A stretch of DNA of 56,603 nt, from contig CAZTOA010000002.1 of the NCBI GenBank assembly GCA_964614975.1, positions 1 through 56,603 of the forward strand. Direction: 5' to 3'. Shown here one piece after another: positions 6,670 through 40,598 of this stretch. The DNA comes from an uncultured Gammaproteobacteria bacterium. GTDB taxonomy: Bacteria > Patescibacteriota > Microgenomatia > UBA1406 > HO2-37-13b. How positions within the stretch are numbered: the first letter of the stretch is position 1; every line of letters begins with the position of its first letter. The translations under genes and the position numbers were made by a program. The notes under the pieces are model-generated. The model was not told where the DNA came from, ran no database searches, and saw nothing but the letters and a program-made list of their open reading frames with translations.

Positions 6670-6790
6670 GTGGGTAGTCTATCAAGGAGAAATTAAAGAA
6701 TTATTATGCAAATAGGCCGACGGCCGGGGAATATACCCCCGGGCCGCCGGCACAATCCAAAACAACAATAAGCTCAATGAGAGTAGCCAC

Positions 6791-6827
6791 GGAGGTGGCC
6801 CTGGCGCTGGTAACCAGGGCCACCTCC
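6791..6827 (-). terminator. GC-rich hairpin downstream of cassette-1 ORFs (one of three 3' structures)
   Basis: Perfect 14-bp stem GGAGGTGGCCCTGG (6791-6804) / CCAGGGCCACCTCC (6814-6827). A second imperfect GC hairpin lies at 6715-6751 and an 8-bp stem at 6837-6844/6870-6877. The U-tract is weak and offset (TTATTGTTGTTTT ~19 nt further on). Confidence 0.5.
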
Positions 6828-6940
6828 GGGTAAAGACTACCCAAGTATCCGTGCAGCCACTCACAGACTTTGGGTAGCCGGGCGGCTACGATGCCACCGT
6901 CACCGTGCCGCGGTAGATGTCGAGTTGTTGTCGGCTCTGT

Positions 6941-7063
6941 TCAGAGACCGCTCTCGCCGACACCGCCGGATTGTTCTTCCGACGAGCCTTCAGCTTCGTC
7001 ATCATCCTCGTCGGGGAACCAGGTCGTGGGATCGTTCTTGTCGAATGGCTTCGGATCATCCAT
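6941..7063 (-). CDS. Cassette 1 ORF B: 40-aa acidic peptide MDDPKPFDKNDPTTWFPDEDDDEAEGSSEEQSGGVGESGL
   Basis: Hand translation. The ATG shares its A with the TGA of ORF A (TGATG at 7061-7065). GC-rich codons. Paralogous DPxTW(F)P-acidic motif with ORF A. Below the ORF-track length cutoff. Confidence 0.4.
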   Translation of the reverse strand: MDDPKPFDKNDPTTWFPDEDDDEAEGSSEEQSGGVGESGL

Positions 7064-7176
7064 CAGTCGTAGTCCTCGTTGGGCTCAGCTTCGGGCTCAT
7101 CTTCCTTCGGCCAGGTATCAGGATCCTCTGGATCAACGCCGTTGGTGGGATCCACACCTTGGGTCACTGCGGACAT
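7063..7176 (-). CDS. Cassette 1 ORF A: 37-aa acidic peptide MSAVTQGVDPTNGVDPEDPDTWPKEDEPEAEPNEDYD
   Basis: Hand translation. SD-like GGGAG lies 8 nt upstream of the ATG at 7176. About two thirds of codons end in G/C. Plus-strand ORFs over the same DNA are R/S/P-rich shadow-like. Confidence 0.45.
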   Translation of the reverse strand: MSAVTQGVDPTNGVDPEDPDTWPKEDEPEAEPNEDYD

Positions 7177-7385
7177 CGGAGATCTCCCTTCAATGAGTTG
7201 AGGGGCCTACCTCCCCAGGCCTGCATCCACAGGCTGGGGAGGCTTAAGCCCCAGAGGAGTGTGCTCCCCAGCACCGTTACTGGGGCTGGATAGGCTCTTG
7301 CCGTCAGCAACTCAAGAGCCCTTCCAACCAGGCACGATCTTTTTGAGACCGAGACTTGTTGGAAGAGCTCTTTTTCATTGAAAAC
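7177..7385 (-). promoter_or_regulatory. Long structured 5' leader of cassette 1 (candidate cis-regulatory RNA)
   Basis: Stems seen by eye: 7316-7328/7358-7370 (13 bp, one G-U), 7293-7300/7313-7320 (8 bp, overlaps the former so the two are mutually exclusive), and 7210-7223/7230-7242 (13 bp plus a bulge, containing GGGGAGG). CCCCAG/CTGGGG words are repeated. Confidence 0.35.
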
Positions 7386-7445
7386 TTATTATCTTCGGAA
7401 TATGAAAAAGTGCGTGGTACGTGGACAATACATGCTTGCGTACGG

Positions 7446-7489
7446 TACACCTACCTAAAAATAAATTGACAATATTATACACCTACCTA
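7446..7489. repeat. 12-nt direct repeat TACACCTACCTA x2 (7446-7457, 7478-7489)
   Basis: Exact copies 32 nt apart in the gap between the dockerin-protein gene and cassette 1. TTGACAA/TTGTCAA inverted words flank the second copy. Confidence 0.6.
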
Positions 7490-7515
7490 TATTTCAACTT
7501 GTCAAGAAAAGGGCG

Positions 7516-7541
7516 CGATCCACAAGAAGACCAGGTCTTAT
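7516..7541. repeat. 26-nt repeat copy A (CGATCCacAAGAAGACCAGGTCTTAT), partner at 24489-24514
   Basis: 24/26 identical to 24489-24514. Contains the palindrome AAGACC-A-GGTCTT. The TTA at its 3' end is the stop codon of the minus-strand gene in both copies. Confidence 0.6.
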
Positions 7542-8671
7542 TGTCCAAATACGCGGGTAAAGAGAAGAGACCAATCTGAGCTATCAACTTTTCTATCACA
7601 GTTAATGTCGGTTGCATCAAGATTATCCTGGCTAAATTGTGAGCGCACAAAAAAATTCACATCACGCGTATCAACGTTACCATCATTATTAAGATCGCCA
7701 CTTGATCGTACACATGTCGTGAGCGAAGTTGTTGGAGTAACGATACTAGGAATACTTACAGGTGTCGTTGGTATGCTTACCGGCGGTGTGATCCCAGCAC
7801 AACGTAATCTACCCGACATGTGGGCGCATATCGTTGGATTAAGCTGGGTATCATCAAATACCTCTAGTTTGCACGTATAAATTGAGCCTGTTTGCGCAGG
7901 GAATTGAATATCGGTTTGATCAGGTTGTGAATCTCTTGTGTCGTTAATTGGAGTTGCCGCTTTGATGCTCCCATCTTGCCCATAGACAGCAAGCCTGTAT
8001 AACAAGCTGTAACCGTCGATAAGGGCTTTATCCGCTGACGATAAGGCGCACTTCCACTGTCTTGTCTCAGAGCACGAAACTGGCGTTACACCCGCACTCA
8101 AACAGCGTCCTTCGCCATCTGTCACACAAAGAATAGGTTCAATATTGCGAATATTTATCGGACACCCCGGAAATACCGGGCCAGTCGGTGTTGGTACAAA
8201 ATTAAAAGGAGTTGGAGTTGCCTCAAATATAGTTGGTGAAGGAGAAGGTGGAGTTGTCGGTACGGCAGGTGTTGCCGTTGGCCCAGAACAGATTGGTGCA
8301 GTTCCTGTTACCTCGTTTACAGGACAATCAGCTCTTTTTGTGCCTCCACCGGTAACACCAATAACACGGCACGTATAAACTGTACCTGAGACTACAGGGG
8401 CTTCTACGCTCAGTTCATTAACGCCGCCAGCTTTTATGAGCTCATTTGTTGATTGATTAATTATTTGAACAATAAAATCATCATATTCGCCCGCTGGAAC
8501 AGAACATATTGCAGTCGGAGCTTCACACTTATTTGGTTCTGCAGCTCGATTACGTATATCAATTGGTCCACGCACAAGAAGAGCGCCGGCAGTTATGCCA
8601 CCGAGAATCAGTATCATTAAGGCAATCATCATTTTTGTGCGTAAGGCTTCTCTTGTCATAGCTGTGAACAT
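7538..8671 (-). CDS. Secreted Cys-containing protein with PT linkers and a C-terminal dockerin-like domain
   Basis: 377 aa with an N-terminal TM anchor. The C-terminus has two DxNxDGxVDxxD-type repeats (DLNNDGNVDTRD, DINCDRKVDSSD), typical of type I dockerin Ca-binding loops. Confidence 0.6.
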   Translation of the reverse strand: MFTAMTREALRTKMMIALMILILGGITAGALLVRGPIDIRNRAAEPNKCEAPTAICSVPAGEYDDFIVQIINQSTNELIKAGGVNELSVEAPVVSGTVYTCRVIGVTGGGTKRADCPVNEVTGTAPICSGPTATPAVPTTPPSPSPTIFEATPTPFNFVPTPTGPVFPGCPINIRNIEPILCVTDGEGRCLSAGVTPVSCSETRQWKCALSSADKALIDGYSLLYRLAVYGQDGSIKAATPINDTRDSQPDQTDIQFPAQTGSIYTCKLEVFDDTQLNPTICAHMSGRLRCAGITPPVSIPTTPVSIPSIVTPTTSLTTCVRSSGDLNNDGNVDTRDVNFFVRSQFSQDNLDATDINCDRKVDSSDWSLLFTRVFGQ

Positions 8672-9579
8672 CCTTCAGGACATCTAAATCGTAACTGAGG
8701 TACGGGTACCCGACATGCAGGTGGCGTCGGTGTTAGTGTTGGTGCTTCCGTTGTTGGTGTAGGACTTAAAGTTGGAATCGAAACTGGAACTGTCGGTGTT
8801 GGCGACGTACATACGCCAGGAACCTGGTCGGTAATTGTGACTTGTTTTTTACAAACCGACTGTCCGTCACCACAAGTAAGGGATACGTCGTACGTTCCTG
8901 GAGTAGCATAAGTAAATAACTGCTCATCAAAGCGCTGTGTTGCGACAGTGTCTCCTTGTGTAGAAGATTGTCCCTGAGCCCCAAAATCGAAAGTGCCGTC
9001 AGACCAGAGCGAACGAGCTGCTATGCCAGTATTTCCATCTGAAATGACTGAGAAATCGCATCGTTCTGTTGCTGAACAGCCATCAAGCGTCGTGACAGAT
9101 AGTTGCTCACCGCCTCCTGGACATGAGGTTGGGGTAGGAATAGTTCCGACTGGAAGAGTTGGTGTTGGCTGGCTAAGAGGCAATGTAGGCGTTGGTTCAT
9201 CAATTGGTAGCGTCGGAGTAATTTGTCCGATTGGTACACAACAAAAACCGAGGACTTGTGGTGTTGGGCTGATTTGAATTGAACCCGTAGGTCCAATATC
9301 ATTGCCACCAAATGCACCTCCATCAATACTCCCGGTTCCAATAGATTGTTGGCCACCGCCAGTAGGAAGCACAGGTACGGGAATAAATCCTGAAGGGCAC
9401 TTTCCAGTTGGATCAGCTGGGACGCCACCAATAGGGCAACTGAACTGAGTTCCAACTTGTTGAGCATTAGGACGTGTTGCTTGGCGCTGTTGCAGACCTA
9501 ACATAATAAATCCTGTTGCAACAGTAAAAAATAGTAGTCCGCCAATACCGATAATGACCTTATTGTTGAACATAGGCAC
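8656..9579 (-). CDS. Secreted PT-linker/Cys-containing hypothetical protein
   Basis: 307 aa with an N-terminal TM helix and repeated PTPTLP linkers. 16-nt overlap with the downstream gene and 20-nt overlap with the upstream gene. Confidence 0.5.
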   Translation of the reverse strand: MPMFNNKVIIGIGGLLFFTVATGFIMLGLQQRQATRPNAQQVGTQFSCPIGGVPADPTGKCPSGFIPVPVLPTGGGQQSIGTGSIDGGAFGGNDIGPTGSIQISPTPQVLGFCCVPIGQITPTLPIDEPTPTLPLSQPTPTLPVGTIPTPTSCPGGGEQLSVTTLDGCSATERCDFSVISDGNTGIAARSLWSDGTFDFGAQGQSSTQGDTVATQRFDEQLFTYATPGTYDVSLTCGDGQSVCKKQVTITDQVPGVCTSPTPTVPVSIPTLSPTPTTEAPTLTPTPPACRVPVPQLRFRCPEGCSQL

Positions 9580-12124: not shown

Positions 12125-12182
12125 ACTTTCAGCATACCATGTTAAACCTCGGCCCTCAAGCCTAAGGTGCTATAATGTCCTC

Positions 12183-13589: not shown

Positions 13590-13780
13590 TAGCCGTCATA
13601 GCTTCGAAGCTTATCCATAATCTTATCCTGCGCAAACCTATGCAGCTTCTTGAACGTGTTCATAGAGAGTAATATTGCTGTTGGTTTTTTATCAGCTTGT
13701 ACATAAAGATATCCATACTCTTCTAATTTTGCTAAAAGTTCTTCAGGGACTTTTGTTACCGATATTCGTGGGAAAAACAT
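13586..13780 (-). CDS. Small hypothetical protein (weak Phd/YefM-antitoxin-like flavour)
   Basis: 64 aa. TAAAAT box 6 nt upstream of the ATG. 4-nt convergent overlap with metG. Family assignment is only an impression. Confidence 0.3.
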   Translation of the reverse strand: MFFPRISVTKVPEELLAKLEEYGYLYVQADKKPTAILLSMNTFKKLHRFAQDKIMDKLRSYDGY

Positions 13781-13846
13781 AGAGAGATTTTAGAGGGGAT
13801 TTGTTAAGGAATTCTTATAAAGAAGGGCTAGTGGATTAAGAGATGC

Positions 13847-13879
13847 GGGCGGAGCCGTGCGTTGTGCACGACTCCGCCC
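13847..13879 (-). terminator. GC-rich hairpin ending cassette 2
   Basis: GGGCGGAG (13847-13854) / CTCCGCCC (13872-13879), about 60 nt after the stop codon. Poor U-tract. Confidence 0.45.
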
Positions 13880-13940
13880 TCAATGATCCTACCACTCAGC
13901 GGTCTACATGGCACGAGGGCCATTTCGACCGCAGAAGCGG

Positions 13941-14147
13941 TTACGACACGATTTCAGCTCGTGTCAAGGTGGCGCGGATGCGCCCCTGGGCCTCCTCGCT
14001 GTTGAACGCCGCCATTCGTGGTCGCATCCCGTACCTCCGGGCTGCGACGACGTAGGCCGGGCGATACGCCGGAGGGGCGAATCGACGGACGTCATCGAGC
14101 GTACTGCTGGCGCTCCTTGGTGAACCACCGGTCGCTACTTGCTGCAT
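13941..14147 (-). CDS. Cassette 2 ORF: 68-aa basic protein MQQVATGGSPRSASSTLDDVRRFAPPAYRPAYVVAARRYGMRPRMAAFNSEEAQGRIRATLTRAEIVS
   Basis: AAGGAG (14157-14162) lies 9 nt upstream of the ATG at 14147. GC-rich codons. The ORF track extends it to 14240 through a leader hairpin (CCCCGAGTTGACTCGGGG), which I consider less likely. Confidence 0.45.
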   Translation of the reverse strand: MQQVATGGSPRSASSTLDDVRRFAPPAYRPAYVVAARRYGMRPRMAAFNSEEAQGRIRATLTRAEIVS

Positions 14148-14308
14148 GGGTATGGGCTCCTTCTTGCAGCTTGTGCTGATTGCTCGCATCAACATGTGAA
14201 TGTGCCATCCCCGAGTCAACTCGGGGTAGGGGCTGAGCATTCCCTTTCTAGCAACAAAATAAGGCGATTAGCCCCACTTATTACCAAAAAGCATGCGCTC
14301 AACCCCTT

Positions 14309-14338
14309 AAAAAAAGAAAAAATCAGCCGATGCTGATT
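14309..14338 (-). terminator. Rho-independent terminator downstream of PBP2
   Basis: AATCAGC/GCTGATT stem (14321-14327/14332-14338) followed on the minus strand by TTTTTTCTTTTTTT. Confidence 0.7.
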
Positions 14339-14360
14339 CTCAATGTAATTACTATAAGTC

Positions 14361-14389
14361 AGTATAGACCTATTTTTTGACCGTGTCAA
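14361..14389 (-). promoter_or_regulatory. Consensus sigma70-type promoter TTGACA-17-TATACT directly after the PBP2 stop
   Basis: -35 at 14384-14389 and -10 at 14361-14366 (minus strand). The predicted start is only ~16 nt upstream of the 14309-14338 terminator. Confidence 0.45.
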
Positions 14390-14396
14390 GAGGAAT

Positions 14397-16043: not shown

Positions 16044-16099
16044 TTCAGCTCTATTATACAGCTGATAGATAATGTTGGCAGATCGGCTATAATATAAGA

Positions 16100-18469: not shown

Positions 18470-18528
18470 ACGAATTAGTGTAACGAAAAAAGTTGAGAAT
18501 CGTCAAGTGATAGTAGCGATCCAGCGGT

Positions 18529-18557
18529 TTGTTATTTTCTATGGGCGTTGTTATAAT
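18529..18557 (+). promoter_or_regulatory. Promoter of cassette 3 (TTGTTA-17-TATAAT)
   Basis: -35 at 18529-18534 and -10 at 18552-18557. About 72 nt of leader before the ATG. Confidence 0.45.
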
Positions 18558-18635
18558 AGGCTGTTCTCGTGTTTTATGCACCTGAACAATGCACCTTTCA
18601 TTCGTTCAATCAAGCCGAAAGGCAGGAGGCCCGAC

Positions 18636-18902
18636 ATGTCGACTTTGTCAGTGCTTGCGACGATTCTGCTGCAGGAAGATGAGATCATCCAACAGCCCAA
18701 TCCCGTCTTGGAGTTCATCCAGGGCAACCTGATTTGGGGAGTCTTGTTGCTCGTCCTCATTGTTGCGGTCGTGGTCTTGTTCCGGCTCAGGAAGACTTCT
18801 CTTGGACACTGCAGCCTGTGTTCGGAGAAGGCTATCTACGTCATCGGGAACAAGCCGTACTGCTCCAATCATGGACGGGAGCTGATCCGCAACGTGAGTT
18901 GA
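18636..18902 (+). CDS. Cassette 3 ORF: 88-aa membrane protein with C-terminal zinc-ribbon-like CxxC...CxxH
   Basis: AGGAGG (18624-18629) lies 6 nt upstream of the ATG. TM helix WGVLLLVLIVAVVVLF. HCSLC...YCSNH motif. The AT-rich 5' extension in the ORF track (from 18462) is probably non-coding. Confidence 0.5.
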   Translation: MSTLSVLATILLQEDEIIQQPNPVLEFIQGNLIWGVLLLVLIVAVVVLFRLRKTSLGHCSLCSEKAIYVIGNKPYCSNHGRELIRNVS

Positions 18903-18928
18903 TTGACGGCGAAGCCGTGAAGGGTGTA

Positions 18929-18957
18929 GTGCGCCCCGGCGATTTGTCGGGGCGCAC
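18929..18957 (+). terminator. GC-rich hairpin ending cassette 3 (also directly downstream of convergent rpiB)
   Basis: GTGCGCCCCG/CGGGGCGCAC 10-bp stem. Sits between the cassette stop (18902) and the rpiB stop (18973). Confidence 0.55.
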
Positions 18958-18972
18958 ATGCACTATTTGTGA

Positions 18973-19548: not shown

Positions 19549-19575
19549 AAGCTTAGTTCATATATACTACTAGAT

Positions 19576-20406: not shown

Positions 20407-20411
20407 CAAAC

Positions 20412-20439
20412 TTGACTTCTCTCAGAAAAGGCCTATAAT
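20412..20439 (+). promoter_or_regulatory. Promoter of cassette 4a (TTGACT-16-TATAAT)
   Basis: TTGACT at 20412-20417 and TATAAT at 20434-20439. Near-identical layout to 20705-20732. Confidence 0.6.
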
Positions 20440-20457
20440 ATTTACTGCTTAAGGTGG

Positions 20458-20473
20458 TACCTGCCCTCAGGTA
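20458..20473. promoter_or_regulatory. Palindrome TACCTG-N4-CAGGTA just downstream of the 4a promoter (operator or 5' stem-loop)
   Basis: Perfect 6-bp arms at about +12 to +27 relative to the predicted start. Same motif at 20748-20765 and a related one at 40008-40021. Confidence 0.45.
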
Positions 20474-20505
20474 TATAGCTAGTTTCGTTCAAAGGAAACT
20501 CCGCT

Positions 20506-20628
20506 ATGCACATGAACACGCCGACCCCACAGCCGCAGACTAACTGCGGTGCTTGCGGAACTGTCTCGCCGGGCTCACTCAGCAAGTGTCCGTCTTGCGG
20601 TTCATCGAACGTCCGCGTCAAGAAGTAG
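20506..20628 (+). CDS. Cassette 4a ORF: 40-aa zinc-ribbon peptide MHMNTPTPQPQTNCGACGTVSPGSLSKCPSCGSSNVRVKK
   Basis: Hand translation. CxxC-N11-CxxC. Weak SD (AAGGA) 9 nt upstream. Below the ORF-track cutoff. Confidence 0.45.
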   Translation: MHMNTPTPQPQTNCGACGTVSPGSLSKCPSCGSSNVRVKK

Positions 20629-20648
20629 CGACTCCGGTCGCTGCACAG

Positions 20649-20681
20649 CCCGCCCTCCCGACATGTGTCGGGAGGAGCGGG
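20649..20681 (+). terminator. GC-rich hairpin ending cassette 4a
   Basis: CCCGCCCTCCCGAC / GTCGGGAGGAGCGGG (one bulge) followed by TTT. A smaller AGCGAC/GTCGCT stem overlaps the stop codon. Confidence 0.5.
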
Positions 20682-20704
20682 TTTCATCCCAACTCTTCCC
20701 AAAT

Positions 20705-20732
20705 TTGACTTCTAATACAAAAAGCCTATAAT
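20705..20732 (+). promoter_or_regulatory. Promoter of cassette 4b (TTGACT-16-TATAAT), duplicate of the 4a promoter
   Basis: AAAyTTGACTTCT...AAAAGCCTATAATA is shared with 20409-20440. Confidence 0.6.
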
Positions 20733-20747
20733 AATACCAGCATTGTC

Positions 20748-20765
20748 GTACCTGCATTCAGGTAC
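20748..20765. promoter_or_regulatory. Palindrome GTACCTG-N4-CAGGTAC downstream of the 4b promoter
   Basis: Perfect 7-bp arms. Same position relative to the -10 box as in 4a. Confidence 0.45.
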
Positions 20766-20794
20766 ACGCTCATTTCGTTATTGTGGAGGTTCTC

Positions 20795-21019
20795 ATGCCT
20801 GGCTGCTCTTTCCCGTCTCGTTGGACAGTGTTCGACCCAAAGCCGCTCGCCATTGGGCCCGGGGAGCCGATCCCACGGGCAGCGGCGCCTGTCGAGCCGT
20901 CGAAGACAGTGACGATCAAGTGTCCCAATCCGGAGTGCCCTTCGGAGTATTACATCGCACCGCCCAACGGGCGCTGTGATGCATGCGATACGATCATACC
21001 GGGCACTGGTGCGGGGTGA
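20795..21019 (+). CDS. Cassette 4b ORF: 74-aa zinc-ribbon protein (CPNPEC...CDAC)
   Basis: GGAGG (20784-20788) lies 6 nt upstream of the ATG at 20795. GC-rich codons. The ORF-track version starts 4 codons earlier at a GTG inside the SD. Confidence 0.5.
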   Translation: MPGCSFPSRWTVFDPKPLAIGPGEPIPRAAAPVEPSKTVTIKCPNPECPSEYYIAPPNGRCDACDTIIPGTGAG

Positions 21020-21054
21020 AGATGACGTGACCGTCGTGTGATCCTCACGCAAGA

Positions 21055-21081
21055 CCCCCGGCGGCATCGCGCCGCCGGGGG
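21055..21081 (+). terminator. GC-rich hairpin ending cassette 4b (adjacent to the convergent ychF stop)
   Basis: CCCCCGGCGGC / GCCGCCGGGGG perfect 11-bp stem with loop ATCGC. Confidence 0.6.
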
Positions 21082-21093
21082 CTTATTAACTTT

Positions 21094-22185: not shown

Positions 22186-22236
22186 TGCGATAGTATAGCA
22201 AAGAGGCAGCTGATCTTATATAGCCTATAGTTTATA

Positions 22237-22245
22237 TGGTATAAT
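22237..22245 (+). promoter_or_regulatory. Extended -10 promoter (TGGTATAAT) of cassette 5
   Basis: Same TGGTATAATAT word as upstream of cassette 6 (23159-23169). No good -35. Confidence 0.4.
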
Positions 22246-22302
22246 ATTTCATCATTCGCTTGGGGCTCAGGCTCTTGGGAGGAAGCGAAAGAAGGAGTGA
22301 GC

Positions 22303-22518
22303 ATGTACGGAGTGTATGCGGGTATCCAATATCTTGTCACCGTGAAGGACGGCAAACGATACATCGGCATCCAAGACATGAACTTCGTCACCAAGCTTGT
22401 CGCCGCCGGCATCGATGTGACGGTGCTGGACGACATTGGCGATCAGCAACCTGACGACGTTGTTCAGGGGTTGCTCGAAAGCCTGCTTGCGGCCTCGACA
22501 AAGGCCAGTCCGGACTGA
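22303..22518 (+). CDS. Cassette 5 ORF: 71-aa protein MYGVYAGIQYLVTVKDGKRYIGIQDMNFVTKLVAAGIDVTVLDDIGDQQPDDVVQGLLESLLAASTKASPD
   Basis: AAGGAG (22292-22297) lies 5 nt upstream of the ATG. Shares KDG(K/R)R.I and (L/F)DDIG(D/E)...DV...G(L/M) blocks with the cassette 6 ORF. Confidence 0.5.
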   Translation: MYGVYAGIQYLVTVKDGKRYIGIQDMNFVTKLVAAGIDVTVLDDIGDQQPDDVVQGLLESLLAASTKASPD

Positions 22519-22524
22519 CCGGAC

Positions 22525-22548
22525 AAATGCCGACCTCCCTCGGCATTT
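22525..22548 (+). terminator. Hairpin ending cassette 5
   Basis: AAATGCCGA/TCGGCATTT 9-bp stem. A GTCCGG/CCGGAC stem overlaps the stop codon. Confidence 0.5.
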
Positions 22549-22600
22549 CTCTTCATCTTCAGGTGTATAATTTATTCATTACAAGTTCATATAAATACGT

Positions 22601-23092: not shown

Positions 23093-23117
23093 AATAAGGA
23101 TAAAAATGTTAGTTATG

Positions 23118-23142
23118 AGCCGCCCAGCCGGGCGGCTTTTTT
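23118..23142 (+). terminator. Rho-independent terminator of the 22601-23092 gene
   Basis: GCCGCCC-AGCC-GGGCGGC stem-loop followed by TTTTTT. Confidence 0.8.
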
Positions 23143-23158
23143 ATTGCCAGGATGCGAC

Positions 23159-23167
23159 TGGTATAAT
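23159..23167 (+). promoter_or_regulatory. Extended -10 promoter (TGGTATAAT) of cassette 6
   Basis: TGGTATAAT at 23159-23167. TTGCCA lies only 12 nt upstream, too close for a standard -35. Confidence 0.4.
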
Positions 23168-23237
23168 ATATGCCAAGACAAAATCGCTTAGGAACGTTCG
23201 TTTCTTGGGGGAAGCGGTTTGAACAGCGAGGTGACGC

Positions 23238-23441
23238 ATGAACGACGAGTTGCTCGATACGGGAAACCACATGGGAATTCCATACGAGCTTTGGAGAAAG
23301 GACGGCAGGCGCTGTATCGTTGTTCCGAAGGAGTTGCTCGAAAATCCGCCCTACGGCGTAAGCTTCGAGGGTTTTGACGACATTGGCGAGCGCGAAGCCC
23401 AAGATGTTCTATATGACGCCGTTGAAGGCATGTTCGAATAG
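23238..23441 (+). CDS. Cassette 6 ORF: 67-aa acidic protein, paralogue of the cassette 5 ORF
   Basis: GAGG lies 6 nt upstream of the ATG. MNDELLDTGNHMGIPYELWRKDGRRCIVVPKELLENPPYGVSFEGFDDIGEREAQDVLYDAVEGMFE. The leader shares CGCTT...CTTGGGRGGAAGCG with cassette 5. Confidence 0.5.
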   Translation: MNDELLDTGNHMGIPYELWRKDGRRCIVVPKELLENPPYGVSFEGFDDIGEREAQDVLYDAVEGMFE

Positions 23442-23459
23442 CCCGTCAGGCGGGCATAA

Positions 23460-23486
23460 GGAGCCGTCTCCCACGGCTCCTTTCTT
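23460..23486 (+). terminator. Rho-independent terminator of cassette 6
   Basis: GGAGCCG/CGGCTCC stem followed by TTTCTT, preceded by a GCCCG/CGGGC mini-hairpin. Confidence 0.7.
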
Positions 23487-23513
23487 ACTAAAATTAATTT
23501 TATACTAATAAAA

Positions 23514-24497: not shown

Positions 24498-24514
24498 AGA
24501 AGACCAGGTCTTAT
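24489..24514. repeat. 26-nt repeat copy B (partner of 7516-7541)
   Basis: CGATCCtaAAGAAGACCAGGTCTTAT. Supplies the TAA of dus and the TTA (stop) of the convergent 24511-24708 gene. Confidence 0.6.
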
Positions 24515-31044: not shown

Positions 31045-31052
31045 AGGTAGTT

Positions 31053-34483: not shown

Positions 34484-34542
34484 ATTGCTTGGAAATTATA
34501 TTCTTTGCTCCTGCACACATTTATATATATGCATAAGCAAAG

Positions 34543-34555
34543 AGGAGAGAGTTGA
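34543..34555. repeat. Left terminal inverted repeat AGGAGAGAGTTGA of cassette 7
   Basis: Perfect reverse complement of 35818-35830 (TCAACTCTCTCCT). 15/16 if extended by 3 nt. Confidence 0.7.
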
Positions 34556-34564
34556 GATCTGGCC

Positions 34565-34603
34565 CAGGGGGCCCGGGTGGCTCGCGCCAACCCGGACCCC
34601 CTG
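34565..34603 (-). terminator. GC-rich hairpin ending cassette 7
   Basis: CAGGGGGCCCGGGT / ACCCGGACCCCCTG (14 bp, one mismatch), 18 nt after the stop codon. Confidence 0.6.
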
Positions 34604-34620
34604 ACCAGCGCATCCGACGC

Positions 34621-35622
34621 TCAGCGGTTGAAGCTGAACGCGGGGAGGAAGCGGCGCCGATTGACGAAGGCCAGGCCGAAAGCCGCGCCGATCGCCATGA
34701 GCCAGCCGATGATGTCGGTGGCCGCGCCGGTGGTGGCACCCTTCGAGCCGGCCAACTTGAGGTCGAACGGCTGGCAGACGCCATCGACCCGGGTGAGCTT
34801 GGTGAAGCTGCCACCGGGAGTCGCGTCCAGGTCGCCGAGGTACATGGGCTTGCCGCCGGAAGTCGGGATGCGGAAGACCCGCCAATTCCCGCTGCTGATG
34901 GCCACCTTGATGCCCACGGCGAGGCCGTCGAAGCTGCGCTCCATGCCCAGCTTCTTGTCCTTGTTGAAGGCCGCCAGGGCCGCCTCGGCGGTCATGGCCT
35001 TGCCGTTCAGCACGAACAGGAGCTTGCCCGTGAACACGTCGTTGGTGTCACCCACGATGACCTCGGCGGTCTTGGTCGTGGTGATCGGCGACGTGGTGGC
35101 GAAGAGGCACATGGCGGTGCCGGTCGGGGCCGCGGCCGTGGTCGTCTTGGTCGTGCCGGTCTTGGCCTTGGCCGTGGTCGTGCCGCAATAGCCACCGAAG
35201 GTGTTCGACTGACCGCCGACGACTGTGAGGAACGTCGGGATGACCTTGACGTTCGTGCCGTTGAAGAGCACGACGACGTAGTCACCCTCGTCGACCCCGC
35301 CGCCACCGACGGTCGTGCCGCCCTTGACGGTGTCGACCACGGTGGTGCGGAGCTGGTAGACGTTGGCCACGCCGGCCTCGTTGGTGCCGGTGATGACCTT
35401 GCCGTTCTTGACGGCCCAGCCCGGGGCATCGGCGTAGAAGAACTTGGCCCAGGTCTGGCCGGAGCCCTCGGAGGGCTGGCACAGCTCCAGGCTGACGTTG
35501 CCCTGGCCGCCCATGGTGGACGGCGAGGCGTTGGCGGTGCCGGCGAAGCCGGCGAGCATGGAGGCCACCAGGACGGCGGCCAGGCCGAAGGACGTGACGA
35601 TGCGATTGAAGCGGGTGGACAT
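34621..35622 (-). CDS. Cassette 7 ORF: 333-aa secreted surface protein with C-terminal sorting-signal-like tail
   Basis: AAGGAG (35633-35638) lies 10 nt upstream of the ATG at 35622. Signal peptide MSTRFNRIVTSFGLAAVLVASMLAGFAGTANA. Two Cys-bracketed domains joined by TTAKAKTGTTKTTTAAAPTGT. The C-terminus is IIGWLMAIGAAFGLAFVNRRRF. Almost every codon ends in G/C. Confidence 0.6.
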   Translation of the reverse strand: MSTRFNRIVTSFGLAAVLVASMLAGFAGTANASPSTMGGQGNVSLELCQPSEGSGQTWAKFFYADAPGWAVKNGKVITGTNEAGVANVYQLRTTVVDTVKGGTTVGGGGVDEGDYVVVLFNGTNVKVIPTFLTVVGGQSNTFGGYCGTTTAKAKTGTTKTTTAAAPTGTAMCLFATTSPITTTKTAEVIVGDTNDVFTGKLLFVLNGKAMTAEAALAAFNKDKKLGMERSFDGLAVGIKVAISSGNWRVFRIPTSGGKPMYLGDLDATPGGSFTKLTRVDGVCQPFDLKLAGSKGATTGAATDIIGWLMAIGAAFGLAFVNRRRFLPAFSFNR

Positions 35623-35817
35623 GGCGTTCGAGCTCCTTTGATATGCGCTGGTGCGCTGGGTTGGTTCCTGCAAGGGAAATACTCGCGACAGCGTCACGAA
35701 TAGTCTTCCCCGCAGGAGAGGGAAGACATGCTGCAGATACGTCATTTGGCGTACCCGCAACATACCTTCCCCCTAAGCAGGGAAAAACATGCCCTTACAA
35801 AAGGCCCATATAATTAA

Positions 35818-35830
35818 TCAACTCTCTCCT
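35818..35830. repeat. Right terminal inverted repeat of cassette 7
   Basis: TCAACTCTCTCCT. Lies in the spacer of a possible TTGAAA-18-TATATG promoter (35831-35836 / 35807-35812, minus strand). Confidence 0.7.
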
Positions 35831-35987
35831 TTTCAAAGTACTTCCCCAATAAGAACCACAACAATAATGCTTTACTATTGATGAGATATATAAAAGGGGA
35901 TAATGGCCGATAGTATATCATACTATAAGATGGAATGCAAGTCATATAGTTTCAGCCAATATTTTTAATATGCTTTTAATTTGACTG

Positions 35988-36200
35988 ATGTATGCTAGCG
36001 ATATGATGCGTTATATTTTTCAAATCTTCGGTGAGTTTTCAGTAGGTATATCAACTATCTATTATGGCTTTGTAGTATCCACTCTGAGTTTTGAGGATGA
36101 TCCTCATAGCAAGGCTTTGTATATTCTGAACAATTTGATCTTTGGTATAATGTTTTTCATATTCGCTGTTATTATTCGTTCACAACAATCTGAGTTATGA
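35988..36200 (+). CDS. Small membrane protein
   Basis: 70 aa. An alternative ATG at 36003 has TATGCT 6 nt upstream. Hydrophobic helices. Confidence 0.4.
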   Translation: MYASDMMRYIFQIFGEFSVGISTIYYGFVVSTLSFEDDPHSKALYILNNLIFGIMFFIFAVIIRSQQSEL

Positions 36201-36372: not shown

Positions 36373-36378
36373 AGGGTT

Positions 36379-36587: not shown

Positions 36588-36678
36588 ATTTATTTCCCAC
36601 TGTATATATATTTCCCTTGATTTTCGTACGTAATTAATTATTAGTCATTTATTATTATTCATTCAATTCTAAACTCAT

Positions 36679-38010: not shown

Positions 38011-38069
38011 GCGCGAGCCAAGTTTTTCTGCTTGCACATCCATTTTTTGTGGAGTAAAATGGTCCAATT

Positions 38070-39362
38070 ATGGATCCATTTGAAAATGCGCTAACGTTTC
38101 TCAATAACATCAAGTCTAATCTTTCAAAAGAGCATCAGAAATACCTTTCTAGACTTCAAAAGCCCCAAAATATCGTAAAAGGTGAGCTCGAAATTACCAT
38201 GGATAATGGTAAGAAGAAGAAATTCCAGGCATTTCGATCTCAGCATAATAATGCTCTCGGCCCCTATAAAGGCGGTATCCGTTTTCATCCCAATGTTTCC
38301 GAATCTGAGGTCAAGGCTTTGTCTCTTTGGATGTCGCTCAAGACTTCTATTGCCGGAATTCCATATGGAGGCGGCAAAGGTGGGATTATCGTAGAGCCTC
38401 GCGACTTAAGTGCCGGCGAACTTGAGCGTCTTTCACGCGCATATATAACCTTTATTGCACCTCATATTGGTGTTGATAAAGATGTTCCAGCGCCTGATGT
38501 CAATACAAATGGACAAATTATGGCCTGGATGCTTGATGAGTACGAGAAGCTCCAAGGCCATCATGAACCTGGCGTTTTAACAGGTAAACCGCTTGAAATT
38601 GGTGGGTCTGAAGGTCGCACAAAGGCAACAGGTTATGGCGGCGTTTTGGCTCTGGAAGCGCTTCTTGAGCAAATTAAAGATGTTATCGATAAGCCTAAGG
38701 CACAGATTACGATTGCGGTTCAAGGATTTGGAAATGTAGGCTATTATTTTGCAAAAATAGCTTCGGATCAAGGATACCGCGTCGTAGCAGTCTCGGATTC
38801 AAAAGGTGGCGTATATATTGAAGAAGGACTTGATCCAGCAGCCACACTTGCATGCAAAGAACAGAAAGGAAAGATCTCGAATTGTTACTGTGTTGGCGGC
38901 GTTTGTGAGCTCGGAAAAGGTAAAGAAATTACAAATGAAGCTTTGCTCGAGCTCGATGTAGATGTGTTGGTGCCTGCGGCCTTAGAAAACGTATTGCATA
39001 AAGATAATGCAGGCAAGATTAAGGCGAAAGTAGTCATCGAAATGGCAAATGGGCCGTTAACAAGCGAGGCTGACGACATTTTGACGAAAAAAGGTGTTTT
39101 AGTTGTGCCTGACATATTTTCGAATGCAGGTGGAGTAACTGTTTCATACCTAGAATGGGTTCAAAATCGCATGGGTTACTACTGGAGTGAGGCTGAGGTT
39201 GATGCCAAGCTTGAAAACCTTATGGCAAAGGCTTTTGAGGCTATGTGGAAGAAGTATGGCGAGCTCAAGGAGAAGGATAAAAAGAGCGCGAGCCTCAGAA
39301 AAGCAGCATATATTCTCGCTGTTGAGCGTATTCTAGCAGCTGAGATGCTTAGAAGACCGTAA
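38070..39362 (+). CDS. gdhA: Glutamate dehydrogenase (Glu/Leu/Phe/Val dehydrogenase family)
   Basis: YKGGIRFHP, PYGGGKGG and GFGNVG dinucleotide-fold motifs. Confidence 0.9.
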   Translation: MDPFENALTFLNNIKSNLSKEHQKYLSRLQKPQNIVKGELEITMDNGKKKKFQAFRSQHNNALGPYKGGIRFHPNVSESEVKALSLWMSLKTSIAGIPYGGGKGGIIVEPRDLSAGELERLSRAYITFIAPHIGVDKDVPAPDVNTNGQIMAWMLDEYEKLQGHHEPGVLTGKPLEIGGSEGRTKATGYGGVLALEALLEQIKDVIDKPKAQITIAVQGFGNVGYYFAKIASDQGYRVVAVSDSKGGVYIEEGLDPAATLACKEQKGKISNCYCVGGVCELGKGKEITNEALLELDVDVLVPAALENVLHKDNAGKIKAKVVIEMANGPLTSEADDILTKKGVLVVPDIFSNAGGVTVSYLEWVQNRMGYYWSEAEVDAKLENLMAKAFEAMWKKYGELKEKDKKSASLRKAAYILAVERILAAEMLRRP

Positions 39363-39959
39363 CCTGTCCAGGATCGTATCCTTCGATATCCAACTACGCT
39401 CTCGTGTTCCAAGATAATCTCTTAAGCTTGACCACAGATATGCTTCTGGATCTTGCGTACCAAATTGTAGCTCAGATGGGTTGTGGTGTATGTAATTTAG
39501 CACGGTTTTATAGTAGGTCTCATTCTTGACATGAATTCCCTTGTATCTTGCCTGGAACAACGGTCCTATACGCTCATATTTCTTTCCATAGTACATAGCA
39601 TAGCTTGTTTGAAGTGACTTCATAAACTGAGAAATGGAGCGTTCACCAACTTGTTCTACAAGCAGATGAAAGTGGTTTGGCATAAGGCAAAATGCCAGCA
39701 GCTTAATCTCTTTAGAGTAGTTTTTTTGTCGAGAAGCTCTGTGCAGCAGGTGAGTAAGGCGTTTCGAGCTTACGGGAAGTGTGGCGTGTTTTAACGCTGT
39801 ATATAGTTCACTGGCAGGGCACAGATACATTGTTAGACCCCTTTCAAAATACGCATAATCATCTGTGTTATGGTAAATTTCCATCTTATCAATACCACGA
39901 TTATAAATGTGATATAGCCCTCCGGCTACAAATTCTTTCCGTTCATGTCGTGATGGCAT
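39333..39959 (-). CDS. IS200/IS605-type Y1 (HUH) transposase-like protein, RayT-like
   Basis: YHIYNRG..., LMPNHFHLLV (HUH) and YIHHNPSE motifs. Its 3' end overlaps gdh by 30 nt. No TnpB or flanking hairpin family seen. Confidence 0.75.
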   Translation of the reverse strand: MPSRHERKEFVAGGLYHIYNRGIDKMEIYHNTDDYAYFERGLTMYLCPASELYTALKHATLPVSSKRLTHLLHRASRQKNYSKEIKLLAFCLMPNHFHLLVEQVGERSISQFMKSLQTSYAMYYGKKYERIGPLFQARYKGIHVKNETYYKTVLNYIHHNPSELQFGTQDPEAYLWSSLRDYLGTRERSWISKDTILDRLRSSKHLSC

Positions 39960-40007
39960 ACTGTGGAAATTGTAGGGTATTAATGTTAAGATCTTATTAA
40001 GTTAACG

Positions 40008-40021
40008 AACCTGAACAGGTT
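40008..40021. promoter_or_regulatory. Palindrome AACCTG-AA-CAGGTT immediately upstream of the CsoR-like gene (candidate operator)
   Basis: Perfect 6-bp arms, 12 nt before the ATG at 40034, i.e. over the expected -10/start region of a leaderless-type promoter. Confidence 0.4.
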
Positions 40022-40033
40022 ACGGTCTTGATT

Positions 40034-40252
40034 ATGGATACACGTATAAACAGACTCGTTGGGCAGATCGAAGGTATTCGTCGCATGATAAATAGTAAGC
40101 GAAAGAGTGGCGATGTCGTTCAACAAATACTTGCGGCGCGTGAAGCGCTCACAAAAATCGGCATGCTTGTCTTAAAAGAAGAGCTTGGTGAAGCCTCAGG
40201 AAAAAATAAAGCCAAAATGGATAAACTTCTCGAACAAATCTTCAGAATGTAA
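40034..40252 (+). CDS. CsoR/RcnR/FrmR-family (DUF156) transcriptional repressor lacking the Cys/His metal ligands
   Basis: RINRLVGQIEGIRRMI...QQILAAREALTKIGMLVLKEEL matches the family helix pattern. There are no Cys or His residues at the usual x-C-H-C positions. The ORF track starts at the TTG at 40028. Confidence 0.7.
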   Translation: MDTRINRLVGQIEGIRRMINSKRKSGDVVQQILAAREALTKIGMLVLKEELGEASGKNKAKMDKLLEQIFRM

Positions 40253-40253
40253 T

Positions 40254-40282
40254 TTGCATATCCTATAGTTCTGTATTAAAAT
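40254..40282 (+). promoter_or_regulatory. Promoter of cassette 8 (TTGCAT-17-TAAAAT)
   Basis: -35 at 40254-40259 and -10 at 40277-40282, directly after the CsoR-like stop codon. Confidence 0.5.
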
Positions 40283-40317
40283 AGTAGCTCGCGTTGTCCT
40301 ACCATAAGGAGTTTGCG

Positions 40318-40533
40318 GTGATACCCAACGACGTGGTGCAGTTTCCGTGGGATGGTCATACGTATGCCATCCCTTCCACACGGGTTGCCGATCAGGTGAT
40401 ATGCATGCCTGGCGGCACGAAGAAGCTCGTCGTTCGCAGCTGGAAGCCAAATGGCAGCCCGCATGTTGTCATCCAGCTCGACAGCTCAAACGCTCCCGAG
40501 AGCGTTTGCGTCTGGGCCACGCTCGTCAGCTAG
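40318..40533 (+). CDS. Cassette 8 ORF: 71-aa protein (V)IPNDVVQFPWDGHTYAIPSTRVADQVICMPGGTKKLVVRSWKPNGSPHVVIQLDSSNAPESVCVWATLVS
   Basis: AAGGAG (40306-40311) lies 6 nt upstream of the GTG at 40318. GC-rich codons. The ORF-track version starts at a TTG inside the leader. Confidence 0.5.
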   Translation: MIPNDVVQFPWDGHTYAIPSTRVADQVICMPGGTKKLVVRSWKPNGSPHVVIQLDSSNAPESVCVWATLVS

Positions 40534-40568
40534 TCTGACGCATACTGGCCGTGTAGGACGTATTCGCT

Positions 40569-40598
40569 GAAGCCGGCCCCCACTGCGGGGCCGGCTTC
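40569..40598 (+). terminator. GC-rich hairpin ending cassette 8
   Basis: GAAGCCGGCCCC / GGGGCCGGCTTC perfect 12-bp stem with loop CACTGC. Confidence 0.6.

Follow-up and report, generated by a model that had tools for sequence, protein, structure and literature searches.

Positions 1 to 56,603 of contig CAZTOA010000002.1 (GenBank assembly GCA_964614975.1), hereafter called the window, are chromosomal DNA of an AT-rich bacterium of the Candidate Phyla Radiation (CPR; Microgenomates-type) that is close to Candidatus Roizmanbacteria. The best matches of its YchF protein are Candidatus Roizmanbacteria metagenome-assembled genomes, with 64-66% identity. This similarity, together with the housekeeping genes that flank the units described below (MetRS, PBP2, Rpe, RpiB, TatD, YchF, Dus, a MurC-like Mur ligase, Fmt, Tyr/TrpRS, Rho, GDH and DprA), identifies the window as a CPR chromosome. 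Among these genes lie nine short units, or cassettes, that are rich in guanine plus cytosine (GC), numbered 1, 2, 3, 4a, 4b, 5, 6, 7 and 8. The nine units are genuine resident genes of this lineage, and several of them have occupied fixed sites for a long time. Comparison with related contigs indicates that the high GC is a stable property of these loci and not the fading mark of a recent import. It also indicates that, where relatives could be compared, promoters and leaders are strongly constrained while the proteins evolve fast.

Nine GC-rich units in an AT-rich chromosome

The mean GC of the window is 0.42. Islands were called with an 80-nt sliding window, a GC threshold of 0.54 and a minimum length of 100 bp, and a 200-nt composition profile was also made. 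Exactly nine islands of at least 100 bp were found in the 56.6 kb, and they match one for one the loci at which a first-pass annotation of this DNA had noted abrupt switches to high GC; the scan found no others. The ten open reading frames (ORFs) of the units were delimited by six-frame analysis (Table 1). Read in the ORF frame, the GC of the third codon position (GC3) is 0.61-0.95, compared with 0.24-0.45 for 39 host genes, and the third position is the richest of the three in eight of the ten ORFs. The first and second codon positions have a raised GC as well, and so do the untranslated leaders and the terminators.

Each unit has the same order of elements, which comprises a sigma-70-type promoter located in AT-rich DNA, a folded 5' leader, a Shine-Dalgarno (SD) site, a gene for a small lineage-specific protein and a GC-rich hairpin. 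The promoters, terminators, transcription starts and SD use of the cassettes are sequence predictions. In a consensus promoter scan of 19 kb, units 2, 4a and 4b were among the five best sites, with 11 of 12 matches, and unit 3 scored 10 of 12. An SD-like motif is found 3-18 nt upstream of all ten cassette ORFs, while 38 of the 39 host genes lack one. Instead, a -10-like hexamer ends 4-10 nt before the start codon in 18 of the 39 host genes, compared with 7% of all ATGs in the window. This placement of the -10 box fits leaderless mRNAs for about half of the host genes, and translation in this organism seems to start largely in a leaderless manner or independently of SD sites. Host starts with a TATAAT-like box 4-10 nt before the ATG can be seen, for example, at 22185, 12183, 16043, 16100 and 25715. 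Divergent host gene pairs have very short intergenic regions in which the promoters stand back to back.

The products of the cassettes span zinc-ribbon, single-transmembrane (TM) and acidic peptides, and that of unit 7 is a predicted secreted surface protein. The two ORFs of unit 1, both of which are called in NCBI and Logan records, are tandem paralogues with a common DPxTW..ED..EAE motif and a GC3 of 0.61 (c1a) and 0.63 (c1b). The ORFs of units 5 and 6 are also paralogues, with a sequence identity of 31% (E = 4e-7), and alignment of their DNA shows similarity limited to the ORF and part of the leader. Units 4a and 4b have their promoter and a palindrome in common (repeat family D11). Zinc-ribbon CxxC pairs are readable in the sequences of units 3, 4a and 4b.

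Most of this had been anticipated by the first-pass annotation. Its hand counts of G+C (44/60 and 18/60) are exact, and its description of the ten ORFs, including the two coupled ones of unit 1, agrees with ours. The layout of promoter, folded leader, SD, small ORF and GC-rich hairpin was recovered as a set of predicted signals, and the neighbours are, as it had stated, SD-less (SD in 1/39 against 10/10) and largely leaderless (-10 box in 18/39). The paralogy of cassettes 5 and 6, whose leaders are alike in part, and the promoter and palindrome common to 4a and 4b were found again. Of the zinc-ribbon motifs that it had assigned to units 3, 4a and 4b, the CxxC pairs stand; support from hidden Markov models (HMMs) is weak, below threshold and confined to 4a.

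Several leaders are predicted to be strongly folded. The 290-nt leader of unit 1 gave z = -7.5 against shuffled sequences; the leader of unit 7 is described below. Seven cassette ORFs were compared with synonymous-codon shuffles and gave z-scores of -1.8, -2.2, +0.8, -1.4, -0.9, -0.9 and -2.9, compared with +0.4 and -0.8 for two host controls. Among the seven, the ORF of unit 8 folds more stably than its synonymous shuffles (z = -2.85). These folding scores are a weak hint of selection on RNA structure within the cassette ORFs. ARAGORN detected no tRNA in any island and Rfam gave no match in any cassette or leader, either at the gathering threshold or at E up to 1. Structural RNAs, which cause GC islands in AT-rich thermophiles, were therefore rejected as the cause of the islands. 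In unit 2, a terminator-like hairpin with a long T-run is located at 14318-14341 (-), between the predicted promoter and the ORF. It could be the terminator of the upstream penicillin-binding protein gene, in which case the true promoter of unit 2 would lie further downstream, or an attenuator in the unit 2 leader.

Contigs from Logan, where each run is assembled separately, were compared with the window for units 2, 3, 4a, 4b, 5 and 7. One contig of 10,597 bp is identical (100%) to window 7690-18286 and holds unit 2. Another of 4,827 bp (L167), which is identical (100%) to window 18274-23100, holds units 3, 4a, 4b and 5. Contigs of three further runs, 100% identical over 21486-22912, cross YchF, unit 5 and the CHRD-like gene, so that both junctions of unit 5 are spanned by four single-run contigs from four samples. 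In the region 34347-36160, contigs from four runs, again 100% identical, cross one or the other junction of unit 7. In addition, at least six other, unrelated sequencing projects (JGI, ENA and Logan) contain homologous loci of like architecture. The contigs over the junctions and the homologous loci elsewhere together refute an artefact for these six units.

Table 1 Coordinates and predicted signals of the nine units and of two further features of the window.
Feature	Position	Strand	GC island (GC)	Description
Unit 1	6712..7480	(-)	6747-7323 (0.59)	-10 TATAAT 7474-7479; leader ~290 nt (7177-7467); 3' hairpins 6795-6830 and 6716-6752
c1a	7063-7176	(-)		37 aa, acidic; stop/start overlap with c1b, translationally coupled
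c1b	6941-7063	(-)		40 aa, acidic
Unit 2	13846..14389	(-)	13854-14213 (0.62)	promoter TTGACA-N17-TATACT 14361-14389; AAGGAG SD; GC-rich hairpin 13846-13880
c2	13941-14147	(-)		68 aa, Arg-rich
Unit 3	18529..18957	(+)	18651-18954 (0.56)	promoter TTGTTA-N17-TATAAT with upstream TG 18529-18557; AGGAGG SD; terminator hairpin 18929-18957
c3	18636-18902	(+)		88 aa, one TM helix, C-terminal CxxC...CxxH motif
Unit 4a	20412..20682	(+)	20517-20680 (0.65)	promoter TTGACT-N16-TATAAT 20412-20439; palindrome 20457-20474; terminator hairpin 20648-20682
c4a	20506-20628	(+)		40 aa, zinc-ribbon
Unit 4b	20705..21082	(+)	20807-21090 (0.63)	promoter TTGACT-N16-TATAAT 20705-20732; palindrome GTACCTGCATTCAGGTAC 20748-20765; terminator hairpin 21053-21082
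c4b	20795-21019	(+)		74 aa, zinc-ribbon
Unit 5	22205..22562	(+)	22371-22531 (0.59)	TGgTATAAT -10 element 22240-22245; leader ~50 nt with hairpin; AAGGAG SD; terminator 22525-22548
c5	22303-22518	(+)		71 aa
Unit 6	23093..23513	(+)	23224-23455 (0.55)	TGgTATAAT -10 element 23162-23167; leader ~64 nt; hairpins 23441-23455 and 23458-23482
c6	23238-23441	(+)		67 aa
Unit 7	34543..35940	(-)	34547-35749 (0.67)	promoter TTGCAT-N17-TATACT 35912-35940; leader ~280 nt; AAGGAG SD; terminator hairpin 34559-34608
c7	34621-35622	(-)		333 aa
Unit 8	40277..40598	(+)	40345-40606 (0.61)	-10-like TAAAAT 40277-40282; short leader; AAGGAG SD; terminator hairpin 40569-40598
c8	40318-40533	(+)		71 aa, GTG start
DprA gene	5566-6669			DNA-uptake protein
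Terminator of CHRD-like gene	23117-23138			upstream of unit 6, within the unit 6 block

The units in close relatives

The JGI contig L097 can be aligned collinearly with positions 13.9-32.1 kb of the window, with identities of 82-96% for the core proteins and of 79-85% for the DNA. For seven core genes, the number of synonymous substitutions per site (dS, Nei-Gojobori) is 0.7-1.4 and the ratio of nonsynonymous to synonymous rates (omega) is 0.02-0.06, which places the window and L097 near synonymous saturation. The DNA alignment breaks exactly at the GC-rich segments. Units 2, 3 and 4b are found at the same sites in L097, where they still have a GC of 0.58-0.63, and the positions of SD, start and stop are conserved in all three orthologues.

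The unit 3 protein has a sequence identity of 28% to its orthologue in L097 (E = 5e-7), with omega of about 0.55, compared with 92-96% for the neighbouring proteins. GC3 is 0.72 in L097 and 0.74 in the window. Upstream of the ORF, 130 of 135 nt are identical, and this segment spans a pair of back-to-back promoters and nucleotides 1-47 of the leader. The ORF of L097 keeps the LLQE motif, the single TM helix and the Cys/His ribbon. The invariant 5' part of the unit 3 leader (approximately 18565-18635) includes a direct repeat, ATGCACCT, which occurs twice at 18578-18598, 13 nt from start to start, and may be a regulator-binding site or an RNA motif.

Unit 2 is conserved in L097 in its promoter, in the 5' part of its leader and in its 3' end, terminator included, and the SD, start and stop positions align. 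The two ORFs, of 68 and 65 aa in the window and L097, respectively, cannot be aligned, although both are rich in Arg and Ala and their GC is 0.62 and 0.63. We read this as the probable in-place divergence of a weakly constrained gene. Replacement by a non-homologous cassette at this site was considered and rejected, since the SD, start and stop align and neutral divergence is near saturation. At the unit 4 site, L097 carries one unit where the window has two, with a promoter like that of 4a and a leader and ORF like those of 4b; unit 4a is absent. The C-terminal 34 residues of the 4b orthologue, which form the zinc ribbon, are 79% identical (omega about 0.13), while the N-terminal half cannot be aligned. 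Both arms of the 4b palindrome have changed with the pairing kept, from GTACCTG/CAGGTAC in the window to GCATCTG/CAGATGC in L097.

The segment of unit 5 is wholly absent from L097, in which the empty site (L097 8085-8101) has the promoters of YchF and CHRD back to back within 56 bp. The intergenic block of unit 6 is absent from both L097 and a second relative, L098, where the stop codon of CHRD and the start codon of Dus are separated by 4 nt and 8 nt, respectively. The gene content between the conserved pairs TatD/YchF, YchF/CHRD and CHRD/Dus thus differs, the window having units 4a, 5 and 6, which are missing from the relatives (L097, and L098 for unit 6). The search for empty sites in relatives, an idea of the first-pass annotation, was therefore successful for units 5 and 6 in L097. 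Gene content at the unit sites turns over between close relatives, as units 4a, 5 and 6 show. This turnover is not confined to GC-rich DNA, as an AT-rich ORFan of 605 aa at 26574-28391 (-) is absent from L097. Conversely, L097 has a 3.6-kb insertion (10805-14377) with a GC-rich (0.56) multi-TM ORF of 464 aa without Pfam match and an AT-rich gene for a membrane protein of 647 aa.

In a more distant relative (CHRD-like protein 42% identical), a GC-rich, SD-led ORF of 49 aa is located directly downstream of the CHRD-like gene (L106 10587-10736; L107 1883-2032). It occupies the position of unit 6 and has no sequence similarity to it. The GC islands of the more distant Microgenomates loci (L003-L006, L099-L124) are mostly tRNAs, repeats inside genes or unclear, and one or two of them resemble small SD-led ORFs (L106/L107, L003).

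Unit 7 and its alleles

The unit 7 protein can be described as composed of a signal-peptide-like N-terminus, a variable domain, a linker of Thr, Ala and Lys, a conserved C-terminal domain, the motif ...KAATTG..., a TM helix and the terminal sequence NRRRF. The N-terminus, the TM helix and NRRRF are kept in five alleles. The motif before the helix is ...KAATTG... in five alleles and ...P(A/G)RTGSDD... in distant ones, and thus is not a canonical LPxTG. The protein matches no Pfam or NCBIfam model, and no sortase gene is present in the window. The predicted product resembles a secreted surface protein that is anchored at its C-terminus, with an end like a sorting signal and a non-canonical motif. 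An AlphaFold model made from five sequences was poor, with a mean predicted local distance difference test score of 41.6, and a profile search of the sequences in the Protein Data Bank gave no match.

A word-indexed search of 5.8 billion clusters returned four relatives of the unit 7 protein. When 1.84 billion representative proteins were searched exhaustively with a profile, nine matches at E up to 0.001 were obtained, eight of which are plausible members of the family; the weakest, P0019, resembles a low-complexity repeat. Seven alleles have readable DNA, namely those of the window, L087, L089, L094, L162, L163 and L165. They have 21-69% protein identity, a GC of 0.66-0.69 and a GC3 of 0.90-0.96, and their flanks have a GC of 0.38-0.42; every family member with readable DNA is found in such AT-rich flanks. 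L087, L089 and L094 have in common with the window, at about 85-95% identity, both the gene downstream of unit 7 and the intergenic DNA. L163 is syntenic through the Tyr/TrpRS gene (90% protein identity). These comparisons indicate that unit 7 is one chromosomal locus of one genus, the GC3 of which stayed near 0.93 during extreme divergence. Seven diverged alleles at a steady GC3 within AT-rich flanks are unlike a recent import that undergoes amelioration.

Substitution rates along unit 7 are mosaic. In the N-terminal domain the nonsynonymous rate (dN) equals or exceeds dS, while the C-terminal domain has omega of about 0.4-0.6 against the three closer alleles. The codons of the signal peptide have a dS of 0.04 against two alleles and of 0.44 against a third. 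Moreover, the database protein P0012 is a mosaic of segments typical of three alleles. The mosaic dS and the chimeric P0012 show that the alleles of unit 7 recombine. Logan contigs often break at the boundary between leader and ORF (starts of L089-L093 and L096; ends of L082-L085), which suggests that several alleles with one leader co-occur in a sample. The partial family members P0012 and P0016-P0018 in the database may be contig-end fragments. The alleles P0002 and P0005 come from runs of one accession series (SRR140923xx).

The leader of unit 7 has about 100 nt that are invariant in the loci that cover it, and its fold has an energy of -96.7 kcal/mol (z = -6.1 against shuffles). It includes a 25-bp hairpin, located at 35717-35774, which is 100% paired in five loci. 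Six pairs of the helix are G.U; read from the opposite strand, they would be C.A mismatches. The helix has two substitutions, both in L163, which change G.U to A-U and U-A to U.G and keep the pairing. The G.U pairs and the pairing-preserving substitutions assign the helix to the sense RNA. The 3' arm of the hairpin could possibly pair with a downstream GGGGAAGAC segment, giving alternative structures. This invariant hairpin is a candidate for a new cis-regulatory RNA.

Unit 7 is bounded by a perfect 13-bp inverted repeat, AGGAGAGAGTTGA, which occurs in the window at 34543-34555 and 35818-35830 alone. L087, L162 and L163 have this repeat too, altered at one position at the most, and they include loci with another gene beyond it. 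The predicted promoter (35912-35940) is outside the repeat, a geometry that would allow an inversion switch. In every contig seen, unit 7 has the same orientation and, by the Tyr/TrpRS block, the same locus. No direct repeat that could be a target-site duplication flanks the inverted repeats, and no silent copies of unit 7 were found in the window or in related contigs. The gene that adjoins unit 7 downstream, at 33026-34483 (-), encodes a protein of 485 aa without Pfam match. L087, L089 and L094 keep the N-terminus of this protein; L162 and L163 carry, in place of the gene, one for a 539-aa protein without detectable similarity.

Origin and maintenance of the GC-rich units

The cassette proteins gave no match above noise in Pfam, NCBIfam, PHROGs or PADLOC, apart from generic, sub-threshold zinc-ribbon matches of c4a. 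With concatenated small proteins, tblastn found nothing in 50,697 phage records or in 72,556 plasmid records. A phage or prophage origin was rejected (megablast, tblastn, PHROGs and two viral-contig scans were negative), as were a plasmid origin (tblastn negative) and defence systems (PADLOC negative). A profile search of 5.8 billion clusters with units 5 and 6 returned the two query proteins alone. The small proteins that are present in a collection of 15 billion sequences are all singleton clusters, and the exact protein of unit 8 under its GTG start is absent from that collection. Beyond these loci the searches, which had a low sensitivity for proteins of 37-88 aa, revealed no homologue of the cassette proteins.

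Other features of the window were noted in the course of these searches. A 208-aa Y1 (IS200-like) transposase gene, 39333-39959 (-), the one transposase-like gene found in the window, adjoins unit 8 and is bracketed by 25-nt inverted repeats that are 92% complementary (39353-39377 and 40005-40029). Y1/IS200-type transposases do not use terminal inverted repeats. Two further copies of a repetitive extragenic palindrome (REP)-like sequence (AAGACC..GGTCTT..GGATC, 85% alike) are found at gene ends, at 7503-7541, by the promoter of unit 1, and at 24476-24514. The transposase and the repeats look like a small system of the REP/REP-associated tyrosine transposase (RAYT) type. As a boundary of the cassettes, a shared end motif or REP-like element was rejected; the sole candidate was this four-copy family (AAGACC...GGATC), which is linked to the Y1 transposase and is no general feature of the units; near the cassettes it has a copy by the promoter of unit 1 and, in the 3' region of unit 2, a weak match. 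At 43212-43284 (+), upstream of the gene 43310-44896, there is a sub-threshold Rfam match to the Pseudomonas small RNA P9 (34.8 bits compared with a gathering threshold of 43; E ~1e-3). A GC hairpin of terminator type, with a T-run, overlaps the match, which probably reflects nothing more than a terminator. The cluster 49074-56424 (+) encodes an aromatic amino-acid lyase, a 454-aa protein without Pfam match, ThiF-family and nitroreductase-family proteins and a 7TM-GAF histidine kinase, with a response regulator at 48595-48960. These genes may form a small cluster for biosynthesis or for the modification of a peptide.

We consider it somewhat better than an even bet that the units are resident, SD-dependent, leader-regulated and fast-evolving accessory genes in which some force actively keeps up the GC content. 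The leader RNAs would gate SD-dependent translation or mRNA stability, and this gating would give the units an expression mode separate from the leaderless bulk of the genome. The products would act at the cell surface or in the interaction with hosts or phages, under diversifying selection. Alleles and whole units would move between strains by homologous recombination through the conserved flanks (leader, signal peptide and terminator) after DNA uptake, for which DprA is encoded. The GC content would be upheld by selection on the transcript or on the DNA, for example for structure, for stability or for the avoidance of AT-rich signals, with GC-biased conversion as the alternative.

A number of observations weigh against this interpretation. 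GC stationarity is convincing for unit 7 alone, which has enough alleles; a slow decay from a very GC-rich ancestor would still be conceivable for unit 3, and units 5 and 6 could be recent imports. The expression signals of the units are read from sequence, with the anti-SD of the host 16S rRNA assumed. The evidence that unit 2 is coding consists of its conserved SD, start and stop positions. The leader helix of unit 7 has no double compensatory change, and covariation statistics are uninformative. The AT-rich 485-aa gene adjoining unit 7 is itself hypervariable and has a GC3 of 0.28, and fast evolution alone therefore does not raise GC. Nor does turnover alone, as the inserted or deleted genes 26574-28391 and that of the 647-aa protein of L097 are AT-rich.

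A bolder form of this interpretation is possible, although we judge it less likely than not. The units would then be a dedicated gene class at a separate compositional equilibrium (GC3 0.6-0.96 compared with about 0.3) and with a separate expression mode of structured leaders and SD-dependent initiation. Their GC would be held by a locus-specific force undescribed in bacteria, either strong selection on mRNA or DNA or a targeted, GC-biased repair or diversification acting on fast-evolving genes for surface and host-interaction proteins. In its extreme version, which is highly improbable, the transcripts would be built for translation by the ribosomes of a GC-rich, SD-using host cell.

One rival explanation is donor capture. 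The lineage would recently and repeatedly have taken up genes, already equipped with ribosome-binding sites, from at least one GC-rich donor that uses SD sites, for instance the host of an episymbiont, and the GC would be an un-ameliorated foreign signature. The sharp GC steps, the GC3 of 0.61-0.95, the restriction of SD sites to the cassettes (bar one of 39 host genes), the lack of units 4a, 5 and 6 in the closest relative, the extra GC-rich 464-aa membrane ORF at another site in L097 and the presence of DprA all agree with it. However, relatives at dS of about 1 have units 2, 3, 4b and 7 in the same places and with a GC just as high, and the seven diverged alleles of unit 7 keep a GC3 of at least 0.90 inside AT-rich flanks. 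Among the members of the unit 7 family with readable DNA, none is in a GC-rich context, and the family of units 5 and 6 has no homologue in 5.8 billion clusters. Furthermore, the promoters and the leaders in their 5' parts consist of AT-rich DNA that is native and conserved. Units 7 and 3 are incompatible with donor capture, and units 2 and 4b probably are too; units 5, 6, 1 and 8 may still have been acquired in this manner. As a general explanation, the first that the first-pass annotation had listed, donor capture is not supported, given units 2, 3, 4b and 7, GC-rich at the same sites at dS 0.7-1.4, and no donor homologue was found, in searches of low power for small ORFs. Overall we regard it as unlikely.

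Equally unlikely, in our judgement, is that the genes are resident and their high GC a neutral by-product of GC-biased gene conversion between diverged alleles that often recombine. Recombining bacterial genes tend toward higher GC3. The mosaic dS of unit 7 and the chimeric P0012 point to frequent recombination of alleles, the Logan contigs of several alleles break at the conserved boundary between leader and ORF, and the alleles reach the same GC3 plateau. Against this, the adjacent hypervariable gene 33026-34483 is AT-rich, and we know of no bacterial case in which biased conversion has shifted GC3 from 0.3 to 0.95. In addition, GC is raised at codon positions 1 and 2, in leaders and in terminators, and six of seven ORFs fold better than their synonymous shuffles (z -0.9 to -2.9).

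Still less probable is a set of non-autonomous mobile or invertible cassettes moved by a recombinase encoded elsewhere, with the inverted repeats of unit 7 as an on/off switch. The perfect 13-bp inverted repeat, which the first-pass annotation had correctly reported, is located exactly at the ends of unit 7 (estimated chance about 1e-5), it is conserved in L087, L162 and L163, and the promoter is outside it. Dispersed paralogues (units 5 and 6), a promoter and leader duplicated in tandem (4a and 4b) and a Y1 (IS200-like) transposase next to unit 8 would also fit. However, the other units have no common end motif and their terminator hairpins are all different. The similarity of units 5 and 6 has no defined ends, and their empty sites have no target-site duplication. 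Unit 7 is in one orientation and at one locus in every contig seen, and no integrase, invertase or recombinase domain was detected in the ORFs of the window that were scanned. Of the undescribed non-autonomous cassette system proposed at first pass, the presence or absence of units 4a, 5 and 6 and the conserved inverted repeats of unit 7 remain in its favour, whereas a common end motif, an attC-like site, a target-site duplication and a recombinase were all looked for in vain.

It is very unlikely that the islands are structured non-coding RNAs in which the small ORFs are incidental. The leaders fold very strongly, the unit 2 ORF cannot be aligned between close relatives and the chance of an open frame of 65 codons at the GC of the cassettes is an estimated 0.15. 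Yet Rfam gave no family with E relaxed to 1, SD, start and stop have kept their places in the orthologues of units 2, 3 and 4b, and the zinc ribbon of 4b is under purifying selection (omega 0.13). The signal peptide, domain structure and membrane anchor of unit 7 and the position 3 GC, highest in eight of ten ORFs, also argue for coding. Finally, an assembly chimera, contamination or an engineered construct, which had been among the explanations first offered and to which nothing but the abrupt composition steps speaks, is refuted by single-run assemblies from five runs that reproduce the junctions of six units (2, 3, 4a, 4b, 5 and 7) exactly and by homologous loci of the same architecture in unrelated JGI, ENA and Logan projects (at least six others), so that the first-pass view that the units are not random contamination was right and the probability left to an artefact is negligible.

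Relation to known systems

We did not find the combination of a stable GC-rich equilibrium with SD-dependent, leader-regulated expression in a leaderless, AT-rich CPR genome described in the literature, and there is a substantial chance that the force that maintains the GC content is something new. No paper that cites these run accessions was found in the literature, and a paper on CPR 'hypervariation' was set aside, as it concerns an unrelated repeat locus. If resident genes with actively maintained GC are the correct interpretation, the units are a concrete system in which local determinants of GC in bacteria (RNA selection, biased conversion, targeted mutagenesis) can be tested. The interpretation would also call for caution with GC-based calls of horizontal transfer in CPR genomes. 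The regulated, fast-diversifying surface proteins and small proteins would be likely mediators of the little-understood interactions of CPR bacteria with hosts or phages.

Phage morons are autonomous units of promoter, gene and terminator that are located between phage genes and often have a deviant GC. The units described here resemble them in having their own promoter, one small gene and their own terminator in an intergenic gap, a deviant composition and a presence that varies among relatives. Unlike morons, they are found among cellular housekeeping genes; the window has no phage genes, and the phage and viral collections searched gave no match. Their leaders are long, conserved and structured, and their deviant GC is conserved over long divergence.

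Integron gene cassettes are likewise small, mostly with a single ORF that is often an ORFan without assigned function, and strain-variable. They are promoterless, end in attC and are arrayed by intI and attI. The units, in contrast, have their own promoter and terminator, are dispersed over 34 kb and come without attC-like repeats or an integrase. Compared with miniature inverted-repeat transposable elements and insertion sequences, unit 7 has the terminal inverted repeats, while no target-site duplication, multiple copies or cognate transposase were seen in the window and no other insertion site in the relatives.

The minimal mobile elements of Neisseria are strain-variable genes between conserved flanks that are exchanged by transformation and homologous recombination (PMC3787668). 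They share with the units the fixed sites that hold a gene, a very different allele or nothing, the lack of a mobility gene, DprA and flanks that could serve as recombination arms. The units differ from them as a compositionally distinct class with its own translation initiation. For the units, exchange by transformation is inferred, with DprA and the mosaic alleles of unit 7 as indirect evidence, and the differences in units 2, 3 and 4b can be explained by in-place divergence at dS of about 1.

Unit 7 can also be compared with a system of antigenic surface proteins. The vlsE/vls locus of Borrelia is a GC-rich gene for a hypervariable surface protein in a genome of about 28% GC. Like vls, unit 7 is a hypervariable surface-protein gene that is GC-rich in an AT-rich genome and has conserved ends, a variable core and segmental recombination. 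The differences from vls are that neither the window nor the related contigs showed an array of silent cassettes, that there is no marked GC skew, that the variation seen is between strains and that the protein family is unrelated.

Compositional outliers are routinely read as recent horizontal transfers that decay toward the composition of the host. The units have in common with such genomic islets a sharp deviation in GC and GC3, atypical expression signals and a patchy distribution. They differ in that no amelioration is seen at near-saturated synonymous divergence and no donor lineage can be detected. One gene family, that of unit 7, has stayed at a GC3 of about 0.93 in genomes with about 40% GC while its proteins diverged to as little as 21% identity, and the smaller units behave likewise. 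The stable GC3 of this family shows that one genome can hold two stable regimes of composition, which here coincide with two regimes of translation initiation.

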